Assembly (NCBI GenBank): GCA_050084515.1 | Contig: CM114271.1 | Location: 40,920,001 to 40,984,000, forward strand | Source: Blasia pusilla | Taxonomy: Eukaryota | Length of the DNA: 64,000 bases | Direction of reading: 5' to 3' | Shown: positions 11,190 through 54,350 of the stretch, piece by piece | Layout: each line of letters starts with the position of its first letter | Numbering within the stretch: the first letter of the stretch is position 1 | Translations under genes and position numbers: made by a program | The notes under the pieces: generated by a model | The model's database searches: none | What the model was told of the DNA's origin: nothing | What the model saw: the letters and a program-made list of their open reading frames with translations, nothing else

Positions 11190-12325
11190 GTGAGAGGGGC
11201 ACAAGGGCCATCACGGCGTCCTTTCAGGATTTTGAGAGGCGAGGTAGTGGACTTGAGAGTAGCTCTGGAGGGTTTACCCGAAGTGGTGCGAGGTTTTCAG
11301 GGTCTCCACGTGAGAGACCACTCGATCTCCTTCTGTGTCGTCTCAGACAAGGGGGAGCGTATAGAGGAGTGTGTTAGTGATCCACCGTACACATTGAGTG
11401 GTCCTACCAGTTGGGCGTACGAGATGGACGACGGGGGCAGAGGACCGCATAGGTTTTTGGGTGTTGTAGGCACTATAGAGCTACATGAATTCATTGCGGA
11501 TTTTAGGAGTTGGTGTGACTCACAGCGGGCTAGGAACTCTAGAGAGTTCAACCTGTTTACAGCATGGAATGGTATGTTCCAGCATTTAGAGGGGGCACCC
11601 ATGGACGATTAACATGAGTTTTCCAACAGATATACCCAGGAGATTGAGGCATGGCGACTCTATTATGACCCACACTATGAATCATGGACGAAGTTGTTCC
11701 CAGATGAGGAAGAGGAGTCAGGAGAGGCTACTTCCTCTTCCACTAGTGACGTTTCAGGAGGGATCACTCGCATTGGAGCAATTGCATCGTCTAGTCGGGT
11801 TCGTCCCCGGTTCAACCCTATGGTTGAGTTCTTTGCTGAGTTGAGGGCGAGCTACCAAAGGGGTACGGACAGAGAAGTTGCGGAGCATCCACGACTTCCA
11901 AAGGCGCCCGGGTGAGAGTTTGCGTGAGGCTTACACTTGCTTGCCCCGTTTGATCAACGTCACTCAAGGGGTGAGAGAAGTTCAGGCTATCCAGTCATGG
12001 TACGTGATGCTGGACCGGACCCTGCGAACATGGGTACGGGAGGGGTGATTCTTATGAACACCTCCCCTATGTTGAGAGATTTTTTTAGGACTGCCGAGAA
12101 CATTGACGAGAACATGGCGGAGGAGAGCGTAGCCACCATGGGTTCTAGGCGAGAGCAGTCACAATTGTCTGCACCACCTGTGCAGCAACGTGGACTCCGA
12201 GATAGGTGGACTGTGGTACCACAAGCTCAGGGAGGATACCGGGAGGCCATGCCGCAGAGACCTGCGCCTTCATATGCGACTCAACAACAGCCGCCTACTA
12301 TTACTTGTTGGTCATGTGGTGGAGC
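11190..12325 (+). pseudogene. Ty3/gypsy gag-like region (stops/frameshifts), ending in the first half of a CCHC zinc knuckle
   Basis: Gag-like segments ELHEFIADFRSWCD...AWNGMFQHLEG and FNPMVEFFAELRASYQ. Ends ITCWSCGG, where unrelated sequence begins. Confidence 0.7.
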
Positions 12326-12999
12326 CAAGGTGCGGTAAGAGGAGAGGAAGAGAGGAGAGAGGAGAGAGGAAACTACCTTCAACCCAAAGAGATAAATTTT
12401 TTTAAGAGAGTTTCCGTTGGGTTGAAGAGAGGAAACTTTTTGTGTAATTTTTTTGCATTTGTCTTCTCAGTTCTTAAGCACTCCCACAAATTTTATTTTT
12501 TCTTCCACATTTTAGCAACCCATGTGAGTCCGACGAGTTGCAATTTGCACAAAATTTAGAAAACTCAAAAATCAGTGGAATCATAAGTGTGGAACCAATC
12601 ACTTTTCCATCCAAGGTGTGGAAAAAATCTATCATTTGCCTAGGGCTGAATAGAGTTCAAGCTCAAAGTGAAGGTTTTGGAAAATGAAAGTACAATCTAA
12701 AACCTCATTTTGCATCCTCAAAGTGGTTTGTTTAGAATACTTTGCACTTCTTCGAGGGACAGAATTGGTTGGTGGATTCCTACTCCTACCTCTGACTCTC
12801 TTTAAACTACAAGCAACACATAGTACATGTGCTTATAAGGGAAATATCTTTTGCCACTTGTCTCTCTTTGGATAAAGTTATCACATGAACATGTGGGAAA
12901 GCAACAGATGTGCACCACACACACCCCTATGACACTTGAATTTATAGTGTTGTTGCTGACCCAATACATCCTTCCTATTCCATTGCCACTGTGGATATC

Positions 13000-13545
13000 T
13001 TAGGTGGCGATGATCTCCATTTTTGCCTCTCGATCTGATGCAATTTGCTTTGCTCTCTCCACCATTGGCCTACACATTCTGTTTCTCTTCACCCCAGTTC
13101 TAGACTCAAACAGAAATAGTGGATTGAGATCATCCACCTTCTCCGGGTACATGTTGACATCAATCTTGGGTTGAATACAAAATACGAAGGTCTCTGTAAT
13201 GCAAACATGCTGTGAACTTCCTCTGTCTACGAGTCTGAAACCGGCACTTGTAAGATTGTCCACTTCGTCTTGAGTGCAATTCGTACCTGCGGCGCTGGGC
13301 CAAATCATGGGGATATTCCCCGGAGCTCCAATGGCAGCCGGATAAGACTTCCAAAAAGTGCAAGATTCATTTGGACAGAATAAGTACTTCAATTGATCCC
13401 CGTTCCTCGTGAAACGATCAAAGGTTTTGAGTCCCCAAAATCCAGGCAATGGTCATCCAATCCTTGTACAGTTCTTATTTAGGAAAGTGCCGCATGCTCT
13501 CCTAATGCCATCAGATCCTGCCCTGCAAGTGGGTCCAGTATTCTG
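13000..13545 (-). pseudogene. Cys-rich ORF fragment, probably the C-terminal part of copy B's transposase
   Basis: PTCRAG...RACGTF...*PLPGFWG...LFCPNESC...IWPSAAGTNCTQDEVDNLTSAGFRL. Same strand as the N-terminal transposase piece at 23241-24114, and cut where copy A begins. The assignment is inferential. Confidence 0.4.
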
Positions 13546-14239
13546 GCAGGAGAGAGGAAGAGAGGAGAGGAAGAGAGGAAGAGAGGAGAGTCTCTCTTAA
13601 AAAAAAAGGGTCAAATCCGCCTCCTCTCTTCAAAACTTTTGGACATATTTGAAATTTTTGTTTGCTTTCAAATTCATGAAATCTTTAGAAGAGAATAGGT
13701 AGTGGTCCACATTCGGGCCTAAAGAAACCTCCTTTTTCTAGAGGGCGAAAAACAAGTAGACATCATAAGACCATTACAAACATTTTTCCATCACTCTCCA
13801 TGTGAGCCTTAGTTTCTTCACATTGCCTGTCTCAGTCTACAGTAAGCTGTGCCCAAGGGTATTTTTGTTGGAGGACCATTGGCAAATAATTTGACCAGAA
13901 GTAGCAATCTCATCTCAATGAAAGGTTCAAATAAAGACCAACTTTGTGAAATATGAACACAGCATACAAGAATTGAACCAAAAGATTGTTAGCTGTATGG
14001 AGTAGAGAGAAACTGATGTCCCTTCATTCAGATCCTAAATCTGATAAATCGAGATGCTGCATCCCTCCCAACCAGTAGGAATTTTACAGGTTCCAACTCT
14101 TGCAATCCGTCGGAATCAGATGGCTTGCACCCCTTGCAAGCAAACTCACCATAACAAAGGAAAGATTTTTGGAAGTGATTCCATTCCACCCTGCACCCAC
14201 GAAAATTCAACTGTTTGGGAATCCGAAATGGCAATCCGA

Positions 14240-15365
14240 CAGGTTAAAGGAATCCAACATGTCTTAGAGAAGAAAATAAGCCTAAGAGTGGTTTGAAGAT
14301 ACTAGGGGAACGAGCCAAAAGTGAAGAAGCCCGCCACAATGCCTTAGAATTTGGTCTACCAAGGAAAGAGTCCGACCACTCAAGCAGCCAAATTGTAAGA
14401 ATCCGACAGTTTGCCTGGAAATGGTTGAAAAGTTGCAGTGGTCAAAAAGTGAAAAGTTGCAACCCGTCGGAATCACACGGGTTGCAAAATAAACATTCTG
14501 AGTAGCTAGACGAACACAATCCACAAGTCCAAAAAATTTTTCAGCAAACTTTTACAAACACCATTATCGGTTGAAAAAATCTCGTCCTTTATTACCTCCG
14601 AAGGAACCTTGGAAATGTACATTTGATCCAGTCTATGATTTCTTCAGCCTCGTCATCTACAAATTTACTCCTAACTCTCCTGGGTTCCTGTACAAAAGGA
14701 ATGTCCTGGGATACAAGTGGCTCCTCTCGCCGATTGGGGATAGAAAATGTTGGCAAATTCGAGAGCCTTGGCCCCCCCCTAGGTACACCATAACGGTCCC
14801 ATGTAACCTGATTTGAGTCCCACCCCCTTCCTTGGCAGTAAATCTTGTACGTTCTGCAATGTGACACCCATCCAGTATCAATATGTGCTCCGTCCTTGGA
14901 AATACCATGATGACAATCCCACAAGTAGTAGGAATCCAACACGTCTGAGAGAAGAGAAGAAGCCTACGCATTGTTTGACGATACTAGGGGAAGGTGCCAA
15001 AGTGAAGAAGCCCGGCAGAATGCCTCTTAAGTTGGTTCAATAGGGAAAGAGTCCGATCACTCACGCAGCCAACCAGTCGGAATCCGACAGGTTTCCTGGA
15101 AGTGGTTAAAAAGGTGCAGTGGTCAAAAAGTGAAAAGTTGCAAGCCGTGGAAATCCGACGGGTTGCAAAATAGAAGTCCTTGGAGTACATAGACGATCAC
15201 ATTCGAAAAGACATAAAAGATATTCAACAAACTTTTAGAAACACCACCATCGTTCGAAAAAATCTTATCCTTTATTACATCCGAAAGAAGCTCAGAACTG
15301 TACATTTCATTTATTCTATGAATTATTTTGCCCTCGTCATCAAATAAATCCCTACTCCAAACGCT
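14240..15365. repeat. Internal direct duplication (~14240-14680 vs ~14925-15365)
   Basis: Shared blocks GATACTAGGGGAA..AAAGTGAAGAAGCCCG and GCAGTGGTCAAAAAGTGAAAAGTTGCAA. The same duplication is in copy B (~30300-31240), so it predates the A/B split. Confidence 0.8.
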
Positions 15366-15397
15366 GCAGTCAAGCTGGGTCCTTGAGTTCTTTGAAC

Positions 15398-18300
15398 TCA
15401 CTCGTCATCGTCCGAGAGCTCTTGCAAAATTACTTTCGGCATTGCCCTCCCAATTTTTGGAATCGTGGGAAGTGACGATGGTGTCACTACCAATGGTGGG
15501 TCTGCAACCGGAGCTCTCGGCTTCGAAGGAGAGTTGTACGCCCCAACTAGCGTGTCGTAATCTGCCTTTGCCTCCTTGCAAAGGTCAAACAGTTCCTGCC
15601 TTCCCTCGAGGCAGAGAATGTCCTTGCCACTCTGCCAGGCGCCTTTGATACTCGCCCCTGAAAGGCCCACTAAGTCGAACACCAAGTCACCCAGGCTTGA
15701 GCAGAGCTCGATGAGCGTTTGCATTAGGGCTGGCGACTTTTCCCTTCCTCCAAGTAGTGGGGTACCGTCTTGCATGAAAATTTTCGGGGGGGGGGGGAGG
15801 GAGAATTGTATAAACTATCTAAGCTGTACCCATCGGAGCATGGATCCACAGGATCCTCGATCTTAAACACCTGGAAGTTATGCTCGGGCCGAACGAAGCA
15901 GTAAACATAGGAGTGGTCCATATGTAAAGAAGCACGTTGGAAACAATGTCAACAACTTGGCCACTAGTCTACTCTCAGTATGGTGACATAATGTGCAACA
16001 CGTCACCAAATAACTTTGCTTAACCCCAGAGAACTTCTTTATAATACTAACATTGGAGCAACCTGTCGGAGCTAGACGGGTTGTTTTTGTCCATGACCAA
16101 CCCGTCGGAAGGCGACAGGTTGCTGGCTTAGAGCAGCCCATGCTTGGCTGAGAGAAACCCGTCGCTTTCCGACGGGTTTCTCTCAGCCAAGCAACCTGTC
16201 GCCTTCCGACGGGTTGCTCACGGACAAAAACAATCCGTCGGAGAAATACAATGTGGAGACAGGAATAGAGCCTTACCCAAATTTGACTCGTTGCGGATCG
16301 GAGTGGGTACTTGTTCTTGATTATCCACAATTGCGCCGGCCTCCACTTTAGCAACCTCTTGACGCATTGGAGGTTGAAAAGCTCGTCCTCGCTCCCTCCA
16401 CTCAAAACTAAGAAACAACCCCTGTCACTGAGATAAGCATCTGCAAAGGAAAACAAGAGCGCGATCTGGTCATAAGAAAGGGGGACATTCCAGTCTAGGA
16501 CCCCGTCGGACGGATTCTCGTCCCACAAGCGCAACCCCGAGGGCAAATCACCGATCAAGAGATCCACCGCCACCTCTTCGACCACCCCATGGACCGTCCA
16601 GGGCCGTTTCGTTGAAGCTTCTGTCCCAGCGTTGTCAATTTCTCGATGGCGGGTGTCGATGCTTGGGAACTGAAACTTTTCAGCTCATCCAGTAGATTCG
16701 TGAAGTGAAGGATGACGCTTGTCTGGGTCGTTGTTTCTCTATGTCTTCCCAAGGATGATGGACTGTATTCCACATCGTGGTCTGCTCCTTGGGACAACCC
16801 TGGCGCCTCTCGCTTCCGCTTCTCTCGAGTCTGCGGTCGGCTTGTTGGGGTCTCTATGACCTCAGACTCTGGTGGGGTTTTTTTGCGGAGGACCTGGTCC
16901 GACCTTCTCTCCCCGCTCTCCCGGACGATTCGGCTCTGGCCTTGAATCTTCAGCCTCTCTTTGGGAAGACTCGGCCTTGGAATTCTTCGATCCCCTCGCC
17001 TTGGCTTTGAAACCCGTTGTAGATTTGTCTTTGGCTATGTGGACCTTGGAAGCCAACTCCGCTGTCTCGAGGGCTTGCTCTTCCGCATCTCCTTCGAAAA
17101 AGTCTTCAGGCTGCACAAAATTGGGGATGTCGTCCCGTCCTGCGGCCATTGCATCATAAAGCAGGCGTAGATCTTTCTCGGTTATGTCCTCAGGGTTGTT
17201 GAAGTCCAGCCAAATCGGGAAATTCTCCACCTCCCAATCGGACATGTTCTGAGCCATCTCCGTGTCGTACATGGAGAATGTCTCTCCATCAGGCGGAGAA
17301 GCCCATAATTTGCAGGCTGCCGGTATTTTTTTCCAGGTAACTGCATTCTTACAATGGACGAGGTACCTGAACACCATGCGTTGGGCAGCTCTTAGTCGAA
17401 TTGCATCGGCCGCCTGCTCTTGAAGATCTCGCTTCTTCTTTGCAAAATCCCTTTTTTTCCCCTCGATTTCTTCATCAAGGTCTGCCTGAGGGAGGATGCA
17501 ATCCTTGAACATCGTCTTGAAACCTGGGTTTTTTATGGGCTTGTCCCAGATGTCATCGAGCCAAAGTTCGAAATCATCAGCACTCTCCAGGTTTGCTTCC
17601 TCTGAAAGTGGCTCTATTCTTTTCAGCTCCGCATGGAGACCGTCGAGCATGGACTTCCCGATAAGCCGCAACGCGTCCCAGAACGACCATTCGCGGAGCC
17701 AGTGGGAGATCACTAGATCAAAGACACCCGAAGGATGGTGTGCCGCCCTCTTTTGGGCCTCTGTGCCCTCGAGACTGATTTTCATCACTCGTATTCTCCT
17801 AAATTCACTTATTCCAAACAAGGCAAATCGATGCACGCGATCGAGAGACACTTTCTCCCCAATCCGACCTTGCGGATCTTCATCCCTTTTCCGCTAGCGC
17901 TTGATTATCGCCTTCAATTCCTTGTAGAAATCAGGACCAAGTTCGGGGTTGAGAATGGCGATGTTGCGCTGCATCTTGCTTGCCGTGTACTTCGTTGCTG
18001 CAGATATTGCAGCTTGGATGAATTTTGCACGCTCAGACACAGACACTTTCTCCCTCCGCTCCTGCTCCAATGCAACTCTCTTCTTGGCGGCCTGTATCCT
18101 CGACGAGCAAAGGATTGTGATGGCTGCATCTTGGGAAATAAATCTATTTGCCCAAGTCTTCTTTTTGATTTGTGCACCCTTTGCCAGCATCTCATTTACA
18201 AGGGCGTCGCCCAAGAACCCCTTGTACTCTGACGGGTGCGTCGTTAGCACTTTCTTCACCCGATTGCAATCGTGGATACAGTGGTGGGTGACATTCCCCT

Positions 18301-20284
18301 CCGATACAATCCTGCACATCCAAACTCAATATAAGAAATTTTGTAAGGTACATGGGTTCTTGCAACCCGTCGGACTACGACAGGTCGTCACAGCTCAAGG
18401 TCGGATTGTAGCAACGAGCTAAATTTTGCAACCCATCGGAGTCCGACGGATTGCATTCAGATTTGTGATTGCCTCGTTTCAACTCGTTGGACTCCGACGG
18501 GTTGTTAGATAGTCCGTATCAAAAGTTAACATATCAACCCGTCAGAGTCCGACACGTTGCGCAATTTCAATGAAAGCTGCAATTTGACGCCAAAAATGTA
18601 GCTCCCAACTTCCGAACGCAACCTGTCGGACTTCGACGAGTTGCTTTCGGCCAAAAACATCAAAAAACCTCAAAAAACAGCTTTGAGTCAAGCAACCCGT
18701 CGGACTCCGACGAGTTGCTTTCTTCAAAAAACATCCAAAAAATGCGGCGAGTTGAGCAACTCGTCGGACTCCGACGAGTTGCTTTCTTCAATATACATCC
18801 AAAGAATCAATATACAGTCGAGCAACTTGTCGGACTCCGACGAGTTGCTTTGTGCCAAAAACATCCTAAACCTGTGGTCAGTCGAACAACTCGTCGGAGT
18901 CCGACGAGTTGCTTTCAGCCAAAAACATCCTAAACCAATGATCAGTCGAGCAACTCGTTGGAGTCCGACGAGTTGCTTTCCGGATGTTGCACCCCAGAAA
19001 CAGTGGCGACTCAAATAACTTGTCGGAGTCCGACGGTTAGCAGCAAGAAGAAACTTACGTGTTCATGGCATGCATGGCCATCTCCACCGTCGCCATGTGA
19101 TGAGGGTATGGATGAAGCACCACTGCCTTCACGTAAAAATGTGCCTCCAAGGAGTTTGGGCGCTCCTCTGCAAACTTTGTCCACGCCATGAACCTGTGAT
19201 TTCCATCCCAGATGAAGAAATACAGGTTCCTCATCCAACTGAATTCCGTCCCCTCTATCGCCCTTCTGAATTCCTGATCTCTCATCCTCCAGAATGTGTC
19301 GAGCGATTCCAAGTCCTCCTCTGTAACCAGCGCTTGGGTTCCATGGTCATCGTAAGGCTGAACATAGAACGGAGGGAAGTCGGCGACGAGGATCGCCGCC
19401 CGATTGTTTGAGTTTCGCAATATCCTCATCAGACTGAATTTCGCGGACGTACTCCATTGTCCGCAATTGGCAGAGTGGAATTCTCGGGGCGTTATGGCCC
19501 TCCATCAATGCCATCTGCTTTAACACTTGTCACAATGGGGACAAGATCAATAAGCTACACTGAATTGCCAATGAATTGCAACATGGACCTTCACATAATT
19601 CAAAAAACACAGATCCTCTCTTACCCTCTCGAAGATTGGGTTGGTGTCTTGGCCAGCCAACTGCTCTGAGACAGCACTTGGCAAGTCCACTGGAAACTCG
19701 TCGATCCGATAGAGGTCGATTTCTTCCGTCGGGCTTAGAGACGAGGATGACCGCTCTCGTGCTTCTTCAGCGATGTCCACCATCTCCACGCTGGCGGTCC
19801 TCATGACCTCATCGTCCGTGACTTGAACTTCGGCCGTTTCCGCTATATTGATTGTGTCCCCGGACTTCATCGGGGACATTTCCCGCATCTCAACACTTTC
19901 GGTTGGACGGGCAGGGCTTTCTTCAATGGCTATTGCTTTTTGCCTCCGAGCTTTAGCCAATTCAGCTCTCCTCACCGCCGCGTCTAGACGCTTCTTTTCT
20001 CGCTTTTTGTCGGCGACCCTTTTCTTCAAGGCCTGCGACGCCTCAGCCTCTGCGTTCTGTTTATCGAGCGCCTCCTGTATACGTTTTGCAAGAAGCTCCT
20101 TCTTGTGCATCTCCGCTTCCCTTTCCCGCTCCTCAATTTCTTGCTGCCTTATCTCATTGGCCGAACGAGGCCCTGGAGATGGTGACGCATGAGTCCTCAT
20201 GGACTTGGGAGTGAAGCTCCCAGTCTTGTTTGCTTGAGATTTTTCCTCGTCATTTTTCCCGAAAATGCCTCCACCTATGTGCAC
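15398..20284 (-). pseudogene. Spliced cargo gene, copy A: charged coiled-coil + ParB/Srx-like domain + linker + beta-class N6A/N4C DNA methyltransferase-like domain
   Basis: ParB-like: RIPLCQLRTMEYVREIQSDEDIAKLKQS...YFFIWDGNHRFMAW (DGNHR 19193-19207). Motif IV-like: VDLLIGDLPSG (~16535-16567). Motif X/I/II-like: REKSPALMQTLIELCSSLGDLVFDLVGLSGASIKGAWQSGKDILCLE. Introns: ~19625-19515, 19058-18312 (GT..AG, in-phase join) and 16276-15922 (acceptor mutated to AT). Contains stops/frameshifts. Confidence 0.75.
18361..19047. repeat. Intronic array of 11 palindromic ~27-bp motifs, ~64-bp period in the regular part
   Basis: GCAAC(C/T)(C/T)GTCGGA(C/G)TCCGACGAGTTGC-type copies at ~18362, 18428, 18480, 18535, 18618, 18692, 18756, 18822, 18886, 18950 and 19015. 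Spacers are related to one another. Confidence 0.9.
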
Positions 20285-20579
20285 GATGAATCGCTTGATG
20301 ATTCGCCTTGCTGATGTCGAGATGAGTCGCCTTGATGGGTAGCTCCAATTGTCTCTCGATCGTTCGCTTGTATCGTCTAGCGATGAGTCGCCGTGTAAAG
20401 CGCCCCTTGGTATCTAGTCAGCTGCTATGCGGGAGAGCAATCAAGATCGCGAAATGAAAAACCGGAAATGAGCGATTTCTCCCCTATTTTCTTCTTTTCG
20501 AGCTGTTGGGCTGACCGTTTGGTCGCATCGTCATTCCGACGGCAACGTGCCGGCCGTTATAGAAGTCTGGACGTGAGAA

Positions 20580-21570
20580 ACAACAACCCGACAGCTTCGA
20601 GGGGTTGCACGCTTCCCGAGGGTTCAAGGCATCCGTCCTCGTGGAAACCCGTCGAGTCCGGCAGTTGCGGCGCGCGCCTGGGAAGAGAACGCCGTCCTGG
20701 GAAGAGAACGCGGTTGAGCGCCTCCGCCGCCCTCGGACAAGCAACCGTCGGTACCGAACCTCGGCCCGAGACCGTTGAGCGCCTCCGCCCGACATCTCGG
20801 ACAAGAACGCGAGGTACCCGCGCAACCCGTCGGAGACCGTTGGGTTGCACGCTTCCCTCGTCAAGGGATAACAACGCGGGCTTCCCACGCAACTCTTCGG
20901 AGGCCGACAGGTTGCACGCTTGCTTCATGTAAGCGAAACAAGGCGAGGCCCTTGCGCAACCCGTCTGAGGGCGACGGGTTGCACACCTCGCCGTCTTTGG
21001 GCAAGAAGGTGCGGCACCCGCGGAACTCGTCGGAAACAGACGGTTTGCATGCTTCCTTCATGTAAGTGTTACACCATGAGATAATTGGGCAACCTGTCTG
21101 ATGCCGACGGGTATGTATCCGTGCAACTCGTGGGAGAGCGACGGGTTGCCAACTTCGTTCATGTTTGCGTTACAAGGTAAGGCAGAAGCGTGCAACCCGT
21201 CCGAAGCCGATGGGTTGCACGCTTCGCTGAGCTTGGGTTAATAGTTGAGTTACCAGGGCAACCCGTCGGTTGTCGACAGGTTGCACGCTTTCCTATCCCT
21301 CTGGAAACAATGCGACAACGTATTGTTCCGAGGAAACCCATTGCAATCCAACGGGTCACAAGATGTACCCTGAGTTGGACAATCCCGCAAAAACAAGCGA
21401 TATCTTGTGTTTGATGCTAGCAAAATCGCCTCAAAAGATCTTCGGTCGGCAAGAAGGGGGTATCAACCCAACGGACTCCGACGGGTTCCAACAAAATGAA
21501 GTGTGCTTCGCAACCCACGTCTCTGCTTCCCCAATCCTGTAACACACCTGAGTCCGACATGTTGCAACAG
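20580..21570. repeat. Cluster of the same palindromes between the divergent cargo and transposase genes (copy A)
   Basis: Repeated GCAACCCGTC...GACGGGTTGC variants about every 60-70 bp, e.g. 20822, 20889, 20956, 21192, 21259. Confidence 0.85.
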
Positions 21571-21716
21571 AATTGAATCCATTGTGTCAGACAATTTCAC
21601 CTACCAAACTTCATCTTGTCAGTCAAATTCTGTCAGGAGAATCTGAGTTCCTATTCACTATAAATTAAACATTCTCATTCTCATTCTGAGTCTCCTCCCG
21701 TTAGAATCTTCTGGGA

Positions 21717-23240
21717 ATGGATAATTAGGTGAAGCTCACTTGTGGCAGTCATCTAGCGGCCCTTCCTCAATCAGAAATCGTTCGACCGCAAGCTCTTGAG
21801 TCTTTCATAGCAGTGGATGAAAATTTTCTCTCTGTTCGATTTCTTCTCCAAATTGGAACCATCTTTGTATCCAAGGACGTTAGGATGGACGGTATGGAGG
21901 ACATAATAGGTGAGACAGTGATTGCAGACCGTAAAGTATGGAATCTCGTATCTTTAGCAAATGGTCAATACAGAGTTTACGGCTTGCCCTTGAATTTGTC
22001 TGTTTCCCAAGTAGACGGTCAAGAATTTCCTATTGCATCGAGCTCTACATTTGCAACTCCTAGCACAGTAGATCCGGCTTCGACTCTAACTTCATACGCT
22101 ATTATCAACCTCAGTGGATCTGTCGGACACCAACCGGGCCCTCTGTCCGACTACTCGTTCCTCTTGCGAGTATCAAGCAATAGTTTGCTATCGTCTCTGG
22201 CCTTGAAAATGTTCAAGCACATTCTTGTCGACGAGCTGCCGCCTACGTACGATGGAAATTGCATTTTTGAGTTGCCTCCACTTGCTGCTCCTGCTCAAAA
22301 GAAAGATGGAGGACGCCTGAAGGGTATGGACAGAAAGTCTAATTGTCATCGATGGTGTAGGCTTCAACGGACTAGTGCTTCAATTCTAGATGGTCCTTGG
22401 ATTGTCTCCCGCCGCCAATGCGTTGGAGCCTCGGAGTGTAGAAGTCCAGCATGACCGTATCTAGAGCGCAACGGGCGAGTCAATACGTCGCAATTCCCCC
22501 CCAAGAATGCACAAACTCCATACGAGGTTGGTGCCACCATACCGCCGGGAGGCCATCGATGTCCTCATTGTCAGGCATCGCCCTTCTACGTTGGAGCGTG
22601 TCCTGCATACATAGTTTTCATTATCCACAACTTGGGCTCCACATCAGAGTACACAAGGCTGGCAGTTCATGTTGGCTCCCACACTCATCCTGTGACTGAT
22701 GCAATTCAGAGACACATCAAGGAGGATGTGGCAAAGAAAGTTGCCGAGGTCTACAGAAACTCTCCGGGTTCAAATCCCGGAGTGATCAAGCTCACAACAG
22801 CATCACAAATTTGTGAACAATTGCTTGGAATCCCTGGATAGGGTGAGATCACGGCGGCTGAGGAGAAACAACTATGGGAAAATCTCGCATTTCTCGCTGA
22901 TCCTGAATGCTTCCGAATTTGCTGCGTCAGATACGGGTTCTAGATGGAAAGACGGCCGAAATGGATGCCATCGCCAGAATCAAGGCCAACTCCAGATTTC
23001 CATTCATTCAAAGATGGCAGTTCATGGGCCAAGGAGGCGAGGGATCCAGGGCCGATGTCTTCAAAATGTCAACCACAGGTCCGTCGAGTGGCCTCGATCT
23101 TATAGATCGAATGAGGGAAGGGGAAGATCTTTACGGCAGCTGGATAAGCTTTGATATTTGCTACAGAGTGTTGAACGGATGGTTGAAAATGGGTACTCAC
23201 GTTTATGACCATGTGGAGAAGGGACTCAAAACTATATTTG
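21717..23240 (+). pseudogene. Mutator/MULE-like transposase, N-terminal part (copy A), truncated
   Basis: Cys/His region CVGASECRSPA..CPHC..CPA..RLAVHVGSHTHPV resembles WRKY/GCM1-type zinc fingers. Followed by WISFDICYRVLNGW..HVYD, plausibly the first acidic residue of an RNase H-fold DDE core. Superfamily call is by resemblance only. Confidence 0.55.
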
Positions 23241-24114
23241 TCTGGAGTGGTGGCACCGACCTCATATGGAGTTTTTGCATTCTTGGAGGGGAATTGCAAC
23301 GTGTTGACCCGCTCGTTGCGCTCTAGATACGAGCATGCTGGACTTCTACACTCCAAGGCTCCAACGCATTGGCGGCGGGAGACAATCCAAGGACCATTTG
23401 GAATTGAAGCACTAGTCGGTTGAAGCCTGCACCATCGATGACGATCAAATTTCTGTCCAAACCCTTCAAGCATCCTCCATCTTTCTTTTGAGCAGGAGCA
23501 GCAAGTGGAGGCAACTCAAAAATGCAATTACCATCGTACGTGGGCGATAGCTCATCGGCAAGAATGTGCTTGACCATTTTCAAGGCCAGAGACGATAGCA
23601 AACTATTGCGTGATATTCGCAAGAGGAACGAGTAGGCGGACAGAGGGCCCGGTTGGTGTCCGACAGATCCACTGAGGTTGACGACATCCGGAATATCTTC
23701 AGGAAGTACAACATTGTTACCAACGTGTGAAGTTGGAGTCGATGTCGTTTCTACTGAGCTAAGAGTTGCAAACGTAGAGCTCGGTGCAGTATGAAATTCT
23801 CGACCGTCTACTTGGGAAACTGAGGAATTTAAAGGCAAGCCGTAAACTCTGTATTGACCATTTGCAAGAGGTAGGAGATTCCATACTTTACGGTCTGCAA
23901 TCACTGGCTCAATTGTCTTACCTATTATGTCCTCCGTACCGTCCACCCTAACATCCTTGGACACAAAGATGGTTCCAATTTGGAGAAGAAATCGAACTGA
24001 GAGAAAATTTTCATCCACTGGTATGAAAGACTCACGAGCTTGCGGTCAAACGATTTTTGATTGAGGAAGGGCCGCTAGATGACTGCCACAAGTGAGCTTC
24101 ATATAATTATACAT
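23241..24114 (-). pseudogene. Same transposase, N-terminal part (copy B)
   Basis: Near-identical protein to 21717-22540 (DENFLSVRFLLQIGTIFVSKDVR...YDGNCIFELPP...RRQCVGALEC). Confidence 0.6.
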
Positions 24115-24679
24115 TCCCAAAAGATTCCACTGGGAGGAGACCGAGAATAAGAATGAGTATAAGAATGGGAATGGGTATGAGAATGAGAATGAGAATGAGA
24201 AAGAGAATGTTTAATTTATAGTGAATAGGGACTCAGATTCTCCTGACAGAATTTGACTGACAAGATGAAGTTTGGTAGGTGAGATTGTCTGACATAATGG
24301 ATTCAATTCTGTTGCAACTTGTTGGAGTCCAATGGGTTGCAGAATTTGGAAATCAGAGACGTGGGTTGTGAAGCACCCAGTTCCGTTCTTTGTTTCCGTA
24401 TCCCAATGCAAGTTGGAACCCGTCGGAGTCCGTTGGGTTGGTACCCCCTTCTTTCCAACCAATGGTCTTTTGAGTCGATTTTGCTAGCATCAAACACGAG
24501 ACATCGCTTGCATTTGCTAAGGAAACCAATCGTTGGGGACTGTAACGGGATTGTCCAACTCAGGATAGACCTTGTGACCCGTCGGATTGCAAGGAGTTAT
24601 CTCGGAATTATGCGTTGTCGCATTGTTACCCGAGGGATAGAAAAGCGTGCAACCTATCGGTAACCCACGGGTTGCCCAG

Positions 24680-25150
24680 GTACCTCGCCTATTACCCCAA
24701 GATGAGGGAAGCATGCAACCCATCGGCCTTCGACGGGTTGCGCAAGTGCCTCGCCTTGTAACGCTTACATGAAGGAAGCGTGCAACCCATCGGCCTCCGA
24801 CGAGTTGCGCGGGTACCCCGCCTTGTTATCCCAAGATGAGGGAAGCATGCAACCGGTGCGCCTTCGACGGGTTGCGCAAGTGCCTCGCCTTGTAACGCTT
24901 ACATGAAGGAAGCGTGCAACCCGTCAGCCTGCGACGAGTTGCGCGGGTACCCCGCCTTGTTATCCCAAGATGAGGGAAGCGTGCAACCCGTTGGCCTCCG
25001 ACGTGTTGCGCAAGTGCCTCGCCTTGTAACGCTTACATGAAGGAAGCGTGCAACCCGTTGGCCTCTAATAAGTTGCTGTGTACCCCACCTTGTTATCTCA
25101 AGACGAGGGAAGCGTGCAACCCCCAAATCTCCGACGAGTTGCATGGGTAC
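24680..25150. repeat. 134-bp tandem repeat (~3.5 units), two palindromes per unit
   Basis: GTGCCTCGCCTTGTAACGCTTACATGAAGGAAGCGTGCAACCC recurs at 24746, 24880 and 25014. Confidence 0.9.
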
Positions 25151-25617
25151 CTTGCGTTCTTGCCCGAAGACGGCGGAGGCGCGCAACTTGTCGATCTCCG
25201 ACAGGTTGCTAGGATAGCTCGGATTTTTAACCCGAGGAGGACGGATGCCTCCAACCCGCGGGAAGCGTGCAACCCGTCGGAGCCGTCGAGTTGGTGGTTT
25301 TCATGTCCAGACTTCCATAACGGCCGACATGTCACCGTCGGAACGACAGTGCGATCCAACCGTCAGCCCAACGGCTCGAAAAGTATAAATAGGCGAGGGT
25401 TCGCTCATTTCCGGTTTTTCATTTCGCAATCTCGATAACTCTTCCGCGCAGCAGCTGACCTGGTACCAAGGGGCGCTTTACACAGCGACTCATCGCGAGA
25501 CGATTCGAGCGACTCAGCAAGGCGACTCATCGCGGCATCAGCAAGGCGACTCATAGAGGCGATTCATCGTGCACAGAAAGTAACTTTGTTGTCGAGGAGG
25601 AGGCATTTTCGGGAACA

Positions 25618-28600
25618 ATGACAAGGAAAAAATCTCAAGCAAGCAAGGTTGGGAGCTTCACTTCTAAGTCCATGAGGACTCGTGCGTCACCATCTCCAGG
25701 GCCTCATTCGACCAATGAGATAAGGCAACAAGAGATCGAGGAGCGGGAAAGGGAAACGGATATGCACATGCAAGAGCTTCTTGCAAAAGGTGTGTTGGAG
25801 GCACTCGAAAAACAGAACGCAGAGGTTGAGACGTCGCAAGCCTTGAAGAAAAGGATCCCTGAGGAAAAGCGTGAAAAGAAGCGTCTGGACGCGACGGTGA
25901 GGAGAGTAGAATTGGCAAAAGCTCGAAGGGAAAAAGCGATTGCCATTGAAGAAATCCCGGCCCATCTAAGCGAAAGTGTTGAGATGCAGGAAATGTCCCC
26001 GATGAAGTCCGGGAACACAATCAATATAAAATCGGCTGGGGAAACGACCTAAGTTCAAGTGATGGACGATGAGGTCATGAGGACTGCCAGCGTGGAGATG
26101 GTGGACATCTCTGAAGAAGCAAGAGAGGAGTCTTCCTTGTCTCTGAGTCCGGCGGAAGAAATCGACCTCTATCGGATCGGCGAGTTTCTAGTGGACTTGC
26201 CACCTCTTGTCCCAGAGCAGTTGGCGGGCCAAGACACCGACCCAATCTTTGAGCGAGTAAGAAACGATCTTGGATCTTTGAGTTATGTGAAGGCCCATGT
26301 TGCAGTTCATTGGCAATTCAGTGTAGTTTATTGACTTTGTCCCCATTGTGACAGGTTGTAAAGCAGATGGCACTGATGGAGGGCCTGAACGCCGCGAGAA
26401 TTCCACTTTGCCGATTGCGAACAATGGAGTACGTTCGCAGAATTCAGTCTAACGAGGATATTGAGAAGCTGAAATAGTCGGCAATGATAGCATCCTACGT
26501 CGACAGCTTCCCTCCGTTCTATGTTCAACCTTACGATCAACATGGAACCCATGAAGCGCTAGTGACGGAGGAGGACTTGGAAGCACTCGACACATTCTGG
26601 AGGATGAGAGATCAGGAATTCAGAAGAGCGATTGAGGGAATGGAATTCAGCTGGATGCGGAACCTCTATTTCTTCATCTGGGATGGAAACCACAAGTTCA
26701 TGGCGTGGACCCAGTTTGCAGAGAAGCGCCAAAATTCATTGGAGGCGCATTTTTGCGTGAAGGCAATCGTGCTAAACCCATACCCTCATCACATGGCGAC
26801 GGTGGAAATGGCCATGCATGCCATAAACACGTAAGTTTCCTCTTCCTTTTATTTTGATTGCTGCAAACCGTCGAACTCTGACGAGTTGTTTAACTAGTGG
26901 TAACAAAACATTGGATGCCTTAAAGCAACTTGTCGGAGTCCGACAAGTTGCTTGATAGGCCACTATTTTTAGGATGTTTTTGGCCGAAAGCAACTCGTCG
27001 GACTCGGACAGGTTGCATTCGTTGCCACGGGTAGGTGATCGGAGTAGGGGAGCTTGATTGTTGGCGTCAAATTTTGCTTTACTTGAAATTGTGCAATCTG
27101 TTGGACTTTGACGGGTTGCTATGTTTACTTTTTCCACGGAAACCACTCTCTGAACCAAATCATCTGACAACCCGTCGGACTCTGACGGGTTGTAACTTGA
27201 CAATCATAATTCTGAATGCAATTTATCGGACTCCGATGGGTTGCAATATTTAGCTCTTAGCTACCATTACGACCATGAGGTGTAGCAACCTGTCGGAGTC
27301 CGACGGGTTGCAGGAACCCATATAGCTTGCAAAAATTCTTATAGTGTGTTTCGATGTGTAGGATTGTATCCAAGGGGAACGTCATCCACCACTGGATCCA
27401 GGATTGCAACCGGGTGAAGAAAGTGCTAACGACGCATCCAACACAGTACAAGGGGTTCTTGGGCGATGCTTTTGAAAATGAGATGCTGGCGAAGGGGGCT
27501 CAAATAAAAAAAAAGACTTGGGCAAATATATTTATTTCCCAAAATGCAGCCATGACAATCCTTTGCTGGTCGAAGATACAGGCCGCCAAGAAGAGCGCTT
27601 CATTGGAGCTGGAGCGGAGGGAGAACGTGTCTTTGTTTGAGAGTGCTAAGTTCATCCAAGTTGCAGTATCTGCAACTACGAAAGACACTGCAAGCAAGAT
27701 GCAGCGCTACATCGCCATTCTCAACCCCGAACTTTGCCCCGATTTCTACAAGGAGCTGAAGGCGATAATCAAGCGCCAGTGGAAGAGGCATGAAGATCCG
27801 CAGGGTCAGATTGGGGAGAAAGTGTCTCTCGACCGCGTCTATAGATTTTCCTTGTTTGGAATTTCGGAATTTAGGAAAATCCGATTGATGAAAATCAATC
27901 TCGACGACACAGAGGCCCAAAAGAGGGCGGCATACCATCCTCTGGGTGTCTCTAATTTAGTGATCTCCCACTGGCTCCGTGAATGGTCATTCTGGGATGC
28001 GTTGCGGCTTCTCGGGAAGTCCATACTCGTGGGTCTCCAAGCGGAGCTGAAAAAAATAGAGCCAGTTTCGGAGGAAGCAAACCTGGAGAGTGCTGAAGAT
28101 TTTGAAATTTGGCTTGATGACATCCGAGACAAGCCCATGAAAAACCAAGGCTTCAGGATGATGTTCAAAGATCACATCCTCCCTCAGGCAGACCTGGATG
28201 AAGAAATAGAGGCAAAGAAAAGGGATTTCGCAAAGAAGAAGCGAGATCTTCAGGAGTAGGCGGTCGATGCATCTCAACAAAGAGCTGCCCAACATATGGT
28301 GTTCAGGTACCTCATCCATTGTAAGAATGCAGGTACCTGGCAAAAAAATAACGACAACCTCCAAATTGTGGGCTTCTCCGCCTGATGGAGAAGCATTTTC
28401 CATGTACGACATGGAGATGGCTCAAAGCATGTGCGACAAGGAGGTGGAGAATTGCCCGATCTGGTTGGACTTCAACGACCCCAAGGACATTACCGACAAC
28501 AATCTTCGATGGGTGTATGATGCAGTGGTCGCAGGTAGGGATGACATCCTGAATTTGGTGCAGCCTGAAGACTTTTTTGAAGGAGATGTGGAGGAACAAG

Positions 28601-30260
28601 CCCTTGAGACAGCGGAGTTGGTGTCCAAAGTTGTCACCGCCAAGGACAAATCTACAACGGGTCTGAAAGCAAAGGCGAGGGGATCGAAGAATTCCGAGGC
28701 CGAGTCTTCCAAAAAAGAGACTAAGAATTCAAGGCGAGAGGCGAAATTGTGTGGGCGAGCGGGGAGAGAGGGCCAACCGGGCAAGCATCATCATTCACTA
28801 CACGAATCTTCTGGATGAGCTGCAAAGTTTCAGTTCCCAAAAGTTGACACCCGCCATCGACAAATTGACAATGCCGGTATGGAAGCTTTAACGAAACGGG
28901 CACGCTCCCTGGACGGTCCATGGGGAGGTTGAGGAGGTGGCGGTGGATCTCCTTGTCGCTGATTTTCCCTCTGGGTTGCGCTTGTGGGACGACAATCCGT
29001 TTGACAGTGTCCCAGACGGGAATGTCCCTCTTATCTATGACCAGATCGCGCTCCTGTTTTCCTTTGCAGATGCTTATCTCAATGACAAGGGTTGTTTCTT
29101 GGTCTTGATTGGAGGGAGCAAGGATGAGCTCTTCAACGTGCAGTGCGTGAAGAGGTCGCTGAAGTGGAGGACGGCGCAATCGTGGGTCATCAAGAACGAG
29201 TTCCCACTCTGATCGGCGACGAGTCAAATCCGGGTAAGGGCTCTAAATCCATATACAATTTGTCTTGCTCCGACAGGTTGCATCTCTGCATGCAACCCGT
29301 CGGATTGTCTGAGTTGGTGACTGCGGTGTTGCAATCCGTCTAAAAGCGACGGGTTGCAAATTTACCACAAGTCTCCATTGGGTTTATGCAACACGTCGGA
29401 ACCGGATAGGTTGCAAGTGCTTATGCTTTTCCTTGTGTTTCTGGAATGATGCAACCCGTTTGGAAGCGACGGGTTGCTCTTAGCCAACCATGGGCTACTC
29501 TAAGCCAGCAACCTTTCCCCTTCCGACAACTTGCTCATGGCAAAAAAAATCACTAACACTTGTAAAACAACCCTTCGGATTCCGATAGGTTGCTCCAATG
29601 TTAGGACTATAACGAAGTTCTCTGGGGTTAAGCGAAGTTCTTTGGGGACGTGTTGCACATTGTGTCACCATACTGAGAGTAGACAAGCGGTCAAGTAGCT
29701 CTTTCTCGTTGTTGACATTGTTTCCAACGTGCTTCTTTACAGATGGACCACTCCTATGTTTACTGCTTTTTTCGGCCTCAGCATAGCTTCCAAGTGTTTA
29801 AGATCCTGGATCCATGCTCCCATGGATACAGCTTAGATAGTTTATACAATTCCCCCCCCCTTGCCGCCGGAATTTACATGCAAGACGGTACCCCCTTACT
29901 TGGAGGAAGGGAAAAGTCGCCAGCCCTGATGCAAATGCTCATCGAGCTCTGCTCTGCTCAAGGCCGGATGACTTGGTGTTCGACTTAGTGGACCTTTCAA
30001 GGGCAAGTATAAGAGGTGCCTGGCACAGTGGCAGGAACATTCTCTCCCTTGAGGGAAGGCAGGAACTGTTTGACCTTTGCAAAGAGGCAAAGGCAGATTA
30101 CGACATGCTAGTTGGGGGGTACAACTCTCCTCCGAAGCCGAGAGCTCCGGTTCCAGACCCACCATTGGTAGTGACACCATCGTCACTTCCAATGATTCCA
30201 AAAATCGGGAGGGCAAGGCCGACAGTAATTCTGGAAGAGCTCTTGGACGATGACGAATGA
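25618..30260 (+). pseudogene. Spliced cargo gene, copy B: ParB/Srx-like + N6A/N4C methyltransferase-like
   Basis: RIPLCRLRTMEYVRRIQSNEDIEKLK*S..FYVQPY..YFFIWDGNHK; VDLLVADFPSG (~28943-28975); REKSPALMQMLIELCS; DLVFDLVDLSR..GRNILSLE. GT-AG introns at 26257-~26366, 26831-27361 and 29234-29742. Several stops/frameshifts. Confidence 0.75.
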
Positions 30261-32312
30261 GTTCAAAGAACTCAAGGACCCAACTTGACTGCAACGTTTT
30301 GGAGTAGGGATTTATTTGATGACGAGGTAGAAGAATTCATAGAATAGATCAAATGTACAGTTCCGAGCTTCCTTCGGATGTAATAAAGGACAAGATTTTT
30401 TTGAACGATGATGGTGTTTGTAAAAGTTTGTTGAATATCTTTTTTGGTCTTGTCGATTGTGATCGTCTATGTACTCCAACAGTTTATTTTGCAACCCGTC
30501 GGATTCCCACGGGTTGCAACTTTTCACTTTTTGACCACTGCACCTTTTTAACCACTTCCAAGCAACCTGTCGGATTCTTACAGGTTGGTTGCGTGAGTGA
30601 TCGCACTCTTTCCTTGTTAGTCCAACTTTAGAGGAATTCTAGCGGGCTTCTTCACTTTGGCTCCTTCCCCTAGTATCGTCAAACAAGACGTGTTGGATTC
30701 CTACTACCTGTCGGATTGCCATGATGGTATTTCCAAGGACGGAGCACATATTGATAGTGGGTGGGTGTCATCTTGCAGAGCGTACAAGATATACTGCCAA
30801 GGAATGCGGTGGGACTCAAATCAGGTTACATGGGACCGTTATGGTGTACCTAGGGGGGGGGGGGGGGGGGAGAAGGCCAACATTTTTTATCCCCGTCTAC
30901 AATCGTCCAGAGGAGCCACTTGTATCCCACGACATTCCTTTTGTACAGGAACCTAGGAGAGTTAGGAGTAAATTTGTGGATGATGAGGCTGAAGAAATCA
31001 TAGACCAGATCAAATGTACATTTTTTAGCTTCCTCGGATGTAGTAAAGGACAAGATTTTTTCAAACGATAATGGTGTTTGTAAAAGTTTGCTGAATAACT
31101 TTTTTGGACTTGTCAATTGTGTTCGTCTAGCTACTCATAATGTTTATTTTGCAACCCGTCTGATTCCAACGGGTTGCAACTTTTCACTTTTTGACCATTG
31201 CAACTTTTTAACCATTTCCAGGCAAGGTGTCGCCTTTGACAATACTAGGGGAACAAGCCAAAAGTGAAGAAGCCCACCACAATGCCTCAGAAGTTGGTCT
31301 TACAAGGAAAGAGTCCAATCACTCAAACCAGTCGTAGGCTTCTTTTCTTCTCTAAGACGTGTTGGATTCCTATTTTCTGTCTGATTGCCATTTCGGATTC
31401 CCAACCTGTTGGATTTTCATGGGTGCAGGATGGAATGGAATCACTTCTCAAAATCTTTCCTTTGTTATGGTGAGTTTGCTTGCAAGGGATGCAAGCCATC
31501 TGATTCCGACGGGTTGCAAGAGTTGCAACCTGTAAAATTCTGACGGGTTGGAAGGGGTGCAGCTTCTCGGTTTCTCAGATTTAGGATCTGAATGAAGGGA
31601 CATCTGTTCCTCTTTACTCCAGATAGCTAACAATCTTTTGGTTCAAATTATCGTCTCATGTGTTCACATTTCACAAAGTTGGTCTTGAGCAGTCACCATT
31701 CATTATGGGGCAATTCAGGGGAGGCCATGATGCAGGCAACAATCCCTGCAAAAAGAGAGGTTGGCATCGTACTCGATGCACATCCGGGTGAGGTCTCATG
31801 ACACATTAACACTTCAGAGACACTTGGGAATGGCGGAAGCTCAACAATTCTTATTTTGGTACTGTGTTGCCAATGGTTTTCCATAATGTATGATGAGTAT
31901 TGATGCCTTCTGCAAGAAGAGTCAACAATCATTTACAAGCATTTCCTTGTGCCTTTCTTTTGCAAGAAGAGATGTCAATCCATAATGTCAACCAAATATT
32001 CTGTTAAACCTTGAAAAGCACCGTAGTCTGTTAAGACCATCGTTAGAGTCTTTATTTGAACCTAAAGAAACCTCCTTTTTCCAGGGGGCGAAAAACAAGT
32101 AGTTATCATAAGACCACTACAAACATTTTTCTATCACTCTCCATATGAGCCTAAGTTTCTTCACATTGCCTGTCTCAGTCTACAGTAAGTTGTGCCTAGG
32201 GGTATTTTTGTTGGAGGACCATTGGCAGATAATATGACCCGAAGTAGCAATCTCATCTCAATGAAAGGTTCAAATAAAGATAGACCATTGTTAGAGTCTT
32301 TATTGTCAGAGG

Positions 32313-33673
32313 TATGGTCATACACGCGCCAGGTGTTATGTTTATATCCTGAATTACGTCAAGAGCGAGGGCCAGAGAGGGCACCAGAGTGAGTAGCTGG
32401 TCTGGGTGGGCTAGAGATTGTATACTAGGTGTCCCGTTGGGGGACGAGGAGCTCAAGTTGCCTGACAGGGTGGTGGAGCTTCCCATGGAGGAGGTAGAGT
32501 ACCACCACCTAGATGCGCCAAGGGAGACGCCGGACGTGAGGGTGGGCTGGCTGGTCAAATACAGCAGCTACCAGAGCAGATTGCCACTATGGCATTGAGG
32601 TTACACGATGCCGGATCCGTGGCATCGACATCATATGGAGCAGCCAGAGATATGGAGGATCTTGGTTGGATGTGCGGGGTTGCTCAGATGGAGGCCGTCG
32701 CAGTTGTCATGCATGGAGCAACCGCAGAGTTGGATCCACAACGAGGGGAAGCCAGAAAGCATACTAGGCTTCCTCAGTCTTTCACGCTGTCTGAAGCGAT
32801 GAGGACCCCATCGATGGGTCCTCATCAAAGTTCCTAGAGAATTGGTGATGCTGTTGGTACGCAGGCACGGAGGGCGATGGGAGAAGCGAGTTTGACGACT
32901 CCTATTGTTGATGCTCATGAGGGATATGTGTCGAGCACGTTGTTGGGGGCGGGCACCATTGTGTACCGCACTCCTTTATTTTCTGCTTCTGATGTTATGA
33001 CGTTGGGGGGTACGCCCGCCGAGGCTTTTCGGCTGGCCGCTTCACTATGTGAGCGCAGTATGAGGATTCGCCCAGGACATCCCACAAATGAGTGTGTGGT
33101 GCGAGCTAAGGCGATAGTGACTGATGCAGAGTCCTACAACGTCTTGGTCATGGAGGAGTCAGCGTCCTACAGACCAGGATGGCAATCAAGTAATGGGCGC
33201 CTTAGCTCATTACCCATTCGATTCACAGGTGCAGTGATCGAGCGACGGCCAAGAGAGGTGGCGACCTTAGCAGCATTGAGCAGTGCCATCACTTGGCCTA
33301 GTGATTTGATTGAGGGACATCTCCATGCAGAGGATACTCCCACACCTGACATTTCTATGGAGAGGAGTGTCATGGTAGCCGCATCATTTCGTGGAGGAGA
33401 GGTGCCGTAGTGGGGCTCCACTGAGGAGCTTTGACGATTGGCAGATGAGCACGTGCAGACCGTGTGGAGCGAGGCGTTTGCACCGGAGTGTGACGGGTCT
33501 GAGCAACCCGAGGTAGTAGGGAGTGCTACGATGATACCCTTGGATACCACACCCGTTATGTGGCATATTCTGGAGGGGGTATTCAGGTGTTAGATCTCTT
33601 TGGAGGGGTTAGCACCGGATTAGTTGTTATTTTGCAAGCAGGAGTCCGAGTGCAGTAGTACTTGTATGTGGAG
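32313..33673 (+). pseudogene. Continuation of gypsy-methyltransferase copy 1: second half of zinc knuckle, partly deleted protease region, start of C5-MTase
   Basis: GHTRARC at 32316. Region 32877-33673 matches 60650-61900 (-). VLDLFGG at 33587-33607 and YLYVE at 33659-33673, after which homology stops. Confidence 0.8.
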
Positions 33674-54063: not shown

Positions 54064-54350
54064 AGATCTTCTCATTCTATATTTATAAAATCTGATATCA
54101 TCAAGCACACTCACACTCCATATCTCTCCTTGATGTCAAACCAAACTTATCTTCATAGTGAGAGGTTTTGGTCACTCATAAGGCAAGGACCACCATAATT
54201 CCGTTGCATAATGGAAGAAGATTCAACAAAGAGAGAATGAGCTCTCAAGCTCTTCCTCCTTGAAACATATCTCCTTTCCCATCCCAAAGATTTTGCTCCT
54301 TGAGATATACTCTCTCTCCCTTTCCCAAGCCCTCTCCTTAGTGAGTTGCG
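54060..54350 (-). mobile_element. Degenerate fragment related to the LTR-like sequence at 290-540
   Basis: Shared ATGTCAAACCAAAC and TTCAACAAAGAGAGAATGAGCTCTCAAGCTCT. Confidence 0.7.

Follow-up and report, generated by a model that had tools for sequence, protein, structure and literature searches.

Two decayed transposon copies in Blasia pusilla combine arrays of a 27-bp palindrome with an accessory gene of candidate ParB-like and methyltransferase-like domains

What reads a palindrome that a transposon carries in dozens of copies throughout its own non-coding DNA? We addressed this question in a 64,000-nucleotide stretch of the genome of the land plant Blasia pusilla (contig CM114271.1, positions 40,920,001 to 40,984,000; hereafter the window), in which an insertion at 12318-32306 carries many copies of a 27-bp palindrome. 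The insertion, about 20 kb long, consists of two decayed inverted copies of one DNA transposon that are 79-89% identical, and each copy holds a four-exon accessory (cargo) gene and a divergent transposase-like gene on the opposite strand. We consider it probable that the cargo protein binds the palindromes. The best explanation of the locus as a whole, to which we give an even chance, is that the cargo protein binds these sites and covers the element, so regulating or marking it.

A 27-bp palindrome in the non-coding DNA of a paired transposon

The initial annotation of this DNA had described dozens of 27-bp palindromes limited to the non-coding DNA of the element, and counts made within the window bore this out. 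The palindrome comprises two 13-bp arms and one free central base. Fifty-four sites, all within 12515-31551, differ from the 27-mer originally proposed by at most six mismatches; at three mismatches or fewer there were 22 sites, compared to none in each of 100 dinucleotide shuffles. An iterated weight matrix with a threshold of 12 bits or more returned 63 sites, and none of 20 Markov-shuffled copies of the 12-32 kb region held any. All 63 matrix sites fell in the 8,484 bp of non-coding element DNA, with none in the cargo exons (7,136 bp), the transposase sequence (3,135 bp) or the 44,011 bp of the window beyond the insertion. Lone half-sites followed the same pattern (six in element non-coding DNA, none exonic, two outside the element). 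Over the 126 arms, half-site positions A3, A4 and T9 were 95-99% invariant, while the inner bases were more variable.

The sites are spread through the interior of the element and not at its ends alone. Twenty-eight of the 63 lie in cargo introns, 23 between the divergent genes and one (12515-12541) beyond the 3' end of the transposase, downstream of its 3' fragment. The two largest arrays are those between the divergent genes, with 11 palindromes spaced mostly 66-67 bp apart in the left copy (20822-21565) and 12 in 67/134-bp tandem units in the right copy (24314-25209). Cargo intron 2 holds 11 sites in the left copy (18312-19058, minus strand, spacing mostly 64-66 bp) and seven in the right (26831-27361, plus strand), intron 3 holds four (15922-16276, minus) and six (29234-29742, plus), and the downstream regions hold six (14068-15166) and five (30491-31551). 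Isolated single sites are also present, and sites stand close to both insertion ends (12515; 31491 and 31525). Spacing within arrays clusters at 63-67 bp, several arrays being tandem repeats of 64-67 bp and 134 bp, and the spacers are unrelated between arrays. The four palindrome-filled intron intervals listed in the initial annotation all start with GT and three end with AG, the acceptor of left intron 3 being mutated. They represent two introns seen in two inverted copies, and a further intron of 110 bp (19515-19624 in the left copy, minus strand) lacks the palindrome. Two structural features were seen in passing: left intron 3 contains a hairpin at 16141-16193 with perfect 24-bp arms (-32.7 kcal/mol as DNA) that was not seen in the right copy, and the downstream region of both copies has a 450-bp internal duplication (14228-15365, 30318-31232), each unit of which carries two palindromes 71 bp apart.

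We examined whether the sites are constrained by comparing motif and flanks. The same palindrome was found in four unrelated sequence settings. Pairs of sites from different arrays (n = 1,447) had a motif identity of 0.71 compared to 0.30 in the 15-bp flanks, and within arrays the values were 0.74 and 0.41 (overall range 0.71-0.75 versus 0.30-0.42). The earlier proposal that the palindrome is better conserved than its flanks thus holds between repeat units and between arrays. For overall identity from copy to copy it does not: site identity between the left and right copies was 0.842, not above that of the spacers (0.767-0.891), and tests of site conservation by base class were mixed, pointing in both directions. 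In the same comparison A3, A4 and T9 were identical in 158 of 161 aligned columns, and indels opening inside paired sites numbered 0 of 41, both for sites chosen by the matrix, which makes the indel count partly circular. Constraint is thus well supported for the palindrome taken as a feature of the family, whereas between the two copies the evidence is mixed. Within arrays, mirror-image changes in the two arms numbered 23 where 19.2 +/- 3.3 were expected, which is no excess (p = 0.16; against all arms, p = 0.03), and a duplex site fits this lack of excess better than a hairpin does.

The centre of the palindrome, its least conserved part, reads GANTC in 28 of the 63 sites, comprising 23 of 30 intron 2, downstream and end sites and 5 of 33 intergenic and intron 3 sites. 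GANTC is the CcrM site, and the centre would be a candidate methylation target, as a lead only. Exact scans with the degenerate palindrome gave no match in viral, metagenome and prokaryote genome contigs, collections that are poor in plant DNA, which shows no more than that the palindrome is uncommon as a prokaryotic site.

The left copy occupies 13934-23247 (cargo on the minus strand, transposase on the plus strand) and the right copy 23248-31686 (cargo plus, transposase minus). Both transposase genes are cut where the copies join and both cargo genes carry stops and frameshifts; both copies are dead. The insertion interrupts the zinc knuckle of a retroelement gag, and joining the sequences on its two sides restores the CX2CX4HX4C spacing. 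TGT is present on both sides, representing either a 3-bp duplication or microhomology. Neither a terminal inverted repeat nor a long target duplication was found at the insertion junctions, where three bases are shared and one end is apparently rearranged. The simplest history would have one copy insert into the transposase of the other, followed by deletion. That the two arms arose by mirror duplication after insertion was considered and rejected on the ratio of nonsynonymous to synonymous substitution (dN/dS) between the cargo copies, 0.31 (95% interval 0.24-0.40, 923 codons), which implies that the copies diverged as separate working elements and not as mirrored dead DNA. The interrupted gag-like fragment lies at 11900-12317 and 32307-33700, and its right part matches a copy at 60655-61947. 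At each end of the paired copies is a 220-bp piece (13718-13937 and 32049-32280), the two being 94% identical and in direct orientation; on the right, the piece has 15-bp inverted ends that match perfectly, with 23-bp direct repeats around it.

The accessory gene and its transposase-like neighbour

In the left copy the cargo gene is encoded on the minus strand by exon 1 (19625-20257), with a putative start and a charged, low-complexity N-terminus; exon 2 (19059-19514), with a ParB-like N-terminal domain, the motif DGNHR and one frameshift; exon 3 (16277-18311), with a ParB/Noc-like DNA-binding domain, a helical region, a linker and the methyltransferase motif IV region, interrupted by a stop and frameshifts; and exon 4 (15398-15921), a frameshifted C-terminal half of a beta-class methyltransferase fold with the region of motif I, which binds S-adenosylmethionine (SAM). 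The right gene (25618-30256, plus strand) has exons at 25618-26256, 26367-26830, 27362-29233 and 29743-30256. Split by part, dN/dS between the copies was 0.21 for the ParB N-terminal domain, 0.32 for the DNA-binding region and 0.32 for the methyltransferase domain, and all cargo domains were under purifying selection while the copies diverged.

A full HMMER search with cargo exon 3 found 35 relatives with 24-36% identity. Ten of these were looked up, and all proved to be hypothetical proteins that the liverwort Riccia sorocarpa has in multiple copies; one is 1,207 residues long. The Riccia relatives include KAL3677308.1, KAL3686416.1 and KAL3687003.1. Breaks in the Riccia gene models coincide with window cargo introns 2 and 3, and one model combines a transposase N-terminus with the exon of the cargo gene that follows intron 2, which suggests that the two genes are neighbours in Riccia too. 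Other searches were less productive. A metagenome protein scan gave 73 pattern matches and no cargo relative, one of its two patterns spanning an intron; a word-based protein search with the ParB exon found no relatives among 192 candidates; and tblastn with cargo pieces against plasmids and phages gave weak methyltransferase matches or none.

The cargo C-terminus, which the initial annotation had missed, is a beta-class amino-methyltransferase fold. Foldseek matched this domain to CcrM (E 3e-10), M1.HpyAVI (E 2e-9) and rotifer N4CMT (E 3e-6), and a profile matched it to M1.HpyAVI (E 0.025). Pfam N6_N4_Mtase was found on a Riccia relative (E 2.5e-5) and a PHROG DNA methyltransferase on a relative (E 1e-7) and on the window exon (E 5e-4), both resources recognising the part that binds SAM. 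Motif IV precedes motif I, the order of beta-class N6A/N4C methyltransferases. Motif IV itself is altered, reading DLPS in place of DPPY in the left copy, DFPS in the right, and D or H-[LMF]-P-[STI] across nine relatives and both window copies, where the canonical form is (D/S/N)PP(Y/F/W). An intact DPPY methylase is ruled out by this alteration.

In the rest of the protein we recognise an N-terminal domain of ParB type and, after it, a DNA-binding domain of ParB/Noc type, an assignment that is supported but not proven. DGNHR or a close variant is present in 13 listed proteins and in the window copies, and GxxR is the nucleotide-binding motif of the ParB N-terminal domain. Atlas features of this half were ParB_N (11% of members), DUF3723 and DUF6551, and six of nine Atlas structure rows carry ParB_N, with a seventh named ParB/Sulfiredoxin. 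The DNA-binding domain was modelled with a predicted local distance difference test score of about 90, the N-terminal domain being poorly modelled. Among 224 re-aligned chains its best match was Bacillus subtilis Noc on its site (Z 6.6, root-mean-square deviation 3.2 over 105 residues; next best Z 4.9), and in a comparison with 48,161 chains five of the 23 highest rows were DNA-binding domains of ParB, KorB, Spo0J or SopB (Z 4.3-5.1), including a second SopB entry. The ParB N-terminal profile, collinear with bacterial ParB, reached E 0.002 only after a 40-residue insert was removed. What makes the assignment persuasive is that two structure sources place ParB-family domains in ParB order along the chain.

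A number of results count against it. All structural Z scores were below 8, the level that the tool calls safe, and the Atlas structure TM (template modelling) scores were 0.29-0.40. Foldseek searches of the PDB and viral libraries with the 576-residue model returned nothing at E 0.001, and Pfam gave no ParB match on 30 proteins. Compared with 82 bacterial ParB-like sequences the N-terminal profile scored E 0.034 (reversed control 0.77), profile-profile comparison of the DNA-binding region gave E 0.38, and no match resulted when profiles were set against individual SopB or F-plasmid ParB-like sequences. Also against palindrome binding by such a protein, the 27-bp site is longer than the 20-22-bp duplexes in the ParB and Noc crystals described in PMC7383237.

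The transposase-like gene is more fragmentary. Its broken pieces are a 3' fragment at 12790-13540 (minus strand), ending in a Cys/His motif that we take to be SWIM-like, and the 5' parts at 21717-23247 (left, plus strand) and 23248-24100 (right, minus strand); most of the catalytic domain is deleted. Judged by eye from its motifs, it may be Mutator-like. Mutator-like elements have an N-terminal Cys/His finger, a DDE transposase and a C-terminal SWIM motif, along with terminal inverted repeats and a 9-11-bp target duplication. The N-terminus is 30% identical to a Riccia protein (E 4e-19). Four pieces scanned gave no Pfam match and the pieces had no PDB match, and word-based protein searches found no relatives among 479 and 162 candidates.

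Candidate readers of the palindromes

We propose that the palindromes are binding sites for the accessory protein of the element and not for its transposase. The two DNA-binding domains of a cargo dimer would read the two 13-bp arms on double-stranded DNA, and the N-terminal domain would bind a nucleotide, which is cytidine triphosphate (CTP) in bacterial ParB, and close a clamp. Arrays standing every 1.5-2.8 kb would act as loading points from which the protein could extend over the full element and so also over the exons. The methyltransferase-like domain might then write a mark or recruit factors that keep the element expressible; alternatively it may be a SAM- or DNA-binding module, as suggested by the loss of the catalytic aromatic residue. 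The purpose would most likely be self-regulation, in which the divergent promoters and gene bodies stay active despite silencing by the host, the role that VANC plays for VANDAL elements. Provided that binding occurs, we regard such an anti-silencing or self-marking role as fairly likely. The full conjunction is more tentative: that this is a land-plant transposon family with a working ParB/parS module, in which a CTP-gated sliding clamp loads at the 27-bp palindromes, spreads, shields the element from silencing and delivers a methyltransferase-fold domain having either a new catalytic loop or the role of a pseudo-enzyme reader, is on balance doubtful.

The initial annotation had offered parS-like sites or transposase sites, read by an element-encoded protein, and its protein-plus-site idea is partly supported. 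The parS-like option gains from the ParB-like N-terminal and Noc-like domains, the purifying selection and the interior position of the sites, and loses from the lack of a visible ParA. The element's frames are explained by two genes and no ParA-like family appeared in the 25 scanned of 104 open reading frames; without this partner, chromosome-style partition is not implied and the locus is not a ParABS system.

Several observations tell against binding and self-protection by the cargo protein. Arrays and cargo gene are known together at this locus only, motif IV lacks an aromatic residue in all 11 sequences that reach it, and CpG transitions between the copies are 1.65-fold in excess, within the 1.3-2.4 of other repeat pairs in the window. 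Escape from CpG decay was accordingly rejected, despite a higher CpG observed/expected ratio in the element (0.77-1.31) than in a Copia fragment (0.45); a transition excess like that of other repeats gives no sign of lasting escape from 5-methylcytosine.

These CpG and motif IV results are also what favours the first of two rivals that we consider unlikely, in which the cargo protein binds the sites but represses in the manner of KorB, or serves as a scaffold, folding the element and helping the transposase to pair its ends, and has no part in silencing marks. The KorB DNA-binding domain among the structural matches and the position of the two largest arrays between divergent genes agree with such a role. 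The purifying selection on the methyltransferase domain itself does not, and the intron arrays match the VANC pattern and would be needless for a promoter repressor.

Similarly unlikely is binding by the transposase through its N-terminal Cys/His finger, either at subterminal sites or in activation of its own transcription. Palindromes do lie near both insertion ends, and the AtMu1 transposase is reported to activate cognate copies sequence-specifically (bioRxiv 10.64898/2026.08.24.746577). The TnpA motifs described in the same preprint are at element termini, whereas here the cargo introns and the intergenic spacer hold most sites and a single one lies beyond the transposase 3' end. The transposase branch of the earlier proposal is less likely than the cargo branch, and transposase binding would leave the ParB-like gene without an evident target.

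We consider it improbable that the palindrome is a passive minisatellite or fold-back unit, spread by slippage and without a reader. The tandem structure of several arrays, a site identity between copies no higher than that of spacers and the large inverted arrangement of the locus itself would suit such a unit; however, the palindrome is kept while its flanks drop to background between arrays and stays above them within arrays, isolated single sites exist, and exons lack even half-sites. Least probable is action as RNA or single-stranded DNA hairpins (as a splicing aid, a small-RNA source or cruciforms), since, although three of the four sites examined form much more stable folds than shuffled sequences (z -4.6 to -14), as any palindrome would, and one intron 3 site extends to a perfect 24-bp stem, compensatory changes are not in excess within arrays, the one-base centre makes a poor loop and the 23 sites between the divergent genes are probably outside transcripts.

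Surrounding sequence and related systems

The remainder of the window contains unrelated features. An inverted pair of about 800 bp (1-799 and 9155-9976, 84% identical) encloses 8.4 kb, with a piece recurring at 54123-54263, and may be an element with long terminal inverted repeats or two copies resembling long terminal repeats. Decayed Copia-type gag and integrase fragments lie at 37700-40600 (minus strand) and, by eye, decayed Gypsy-like pol fragments at 56400-61950 (minus). Between them, at 46400-51200 (minus), is a multi-intron host gene with GGMPGG-type repeats, which we take by eye to encode Hsc70-interacting protein.

Algal transposons with ParB-methyltransferase accessory genes and neighbouring inverted-repeat arrays had already been reported, a precedent that the initial annotation missed. 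In Ectocarpus, Sola1-1_Ec32 encodes an accessory protein of 1,104 residues with ParB-like and N4C/N6A methyltransferase domains, which was proposed to bind and modify its own transposon (PMC12477816). Going by the architecture described there, the two share the domain pair, a length of about 1,100-1,200 residues and a strand opposite the transposase. Sola1-1_Ec32 differs in belonging to a brown alga and to the Sola superfamily, and the main text of that paper does not contain 'palindrom', so that no site is defined in it (PMC12477816); the Blasia element, from a land plant, has a different transposase, its sites are defined and number 63, and its motif IV is altered. Red-algal Plavaka elements (PAG2, PAG3) have a ParB-like accessory protein, adjacent tandem inverted-repeat arrays and an N6-adenine methylase within the element, and self-binding was proposed there too (bioRxiv 10.1101/2025.02.11.637652). 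As described in that preprint, the Plavaka ParB domain is fused to a 2-oxoglutarate (2OG) oxygenase, the methylase (with SET) is a separate gene and the arrays adjoin PAG3, whereas in Blasia the arrays occupy introns, the spacer between the genes and the region downstream. ParB-linked methyltransferases are also reported from chlorophytes and phages (PMC4738411).

In layout the closest comparison is VANDAL21 of Arabidopsis, the sole tested model for such an arrangement. The target motifs of its accessory protein VANC21 are tandemly repeated in introns and in the non-coding DNA between genes and at the termini, but not in exons, as here (PMC5735166). VANC motifs are 8-9 bp and non-palindromic, and the available text describes no ParB or methyltransferase domain (PMC5735166). 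General Pfam scans showed no family shared by VANC and cargo, no direct comparison with the VANC sequence being made, and the cargo protein has other folds. By analogy, the Blasia element would work like VANDAL/VANC in layout, and is not shown to be a member.

Bacterial ParB, Noc, KorB and SopB with their sites (parS, NBS, OB and sopC; PDB 7ol9, 6s6h, 1r71, 1vz0, 3mky) have the same domain order and clustered palindromes, the sopC of the F plasmid being a 43-bp tandem array behind sopB. The Blasia system differs from them in that no ParA was seen and in its longer site, the large insertions in both domains, the fused methyltransferase fold and the introns. CcrM, M1.HpyAVI, rotifer N4CMT and Marchantia MpDN4MT1 share the C-terminal fold, with a catalytic loop before the SAM-binding loop, and the beta-class enzymes have (D/S/N)PP(Y/F/W) where the cargo has D-[LMF]-P-[STI]; MpDN4MT1, a host sperm enzyme, is described with TSPPY (Marchantia 4mC preprint). 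The Atlas clusters nearest by features to the ParB half of the Riccia relatives P0010 and P0003 (0.95-0.97) are fungal Starship DUF3723 proteins, hinting that these are ParB-like. DUF3723 proteins are likewise auxiliary genes of mobile elements, but of fungal tyrosine-recombinase elements (PMC11162782), and a literature search found no paper with both 'DUF3723' and 'ParB'. Nor did we find a land-plant report pairing a ParB-methyltransferase gene with palindromes in a search whose scope excluded most subscription journals. What is new here is the occurrence in a land plant, along with a candidate site that is defined and a catalytic motif that is altered, algal ParB-methyltransferase accessory genes being already known.

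The red and brown algal papers propose ParB-like self-recognition without a test, and this locus supplies both protein and site. With full-length liverwort relatives and a sharply defined site, the proposal is directly testable in vitro. To our knowledge, VANC and TnpA-type proteins are the only ones demonstrated to enable a transposon's recognition and re-marking of itself, and the CTP-switch DNA clamp is so far known to us only from prokaryotes, their plasmids and phages. If the proposal is true, a CTP-switch clamp works on plant chromatin and the protein-site pair would be usable for targeted epigenome editing. Together with the algal cases, it would then belong to a class of transposon proteins that recurs among eukaryotes and serves self-recognition, each protein being paired with a palindrome of its own.

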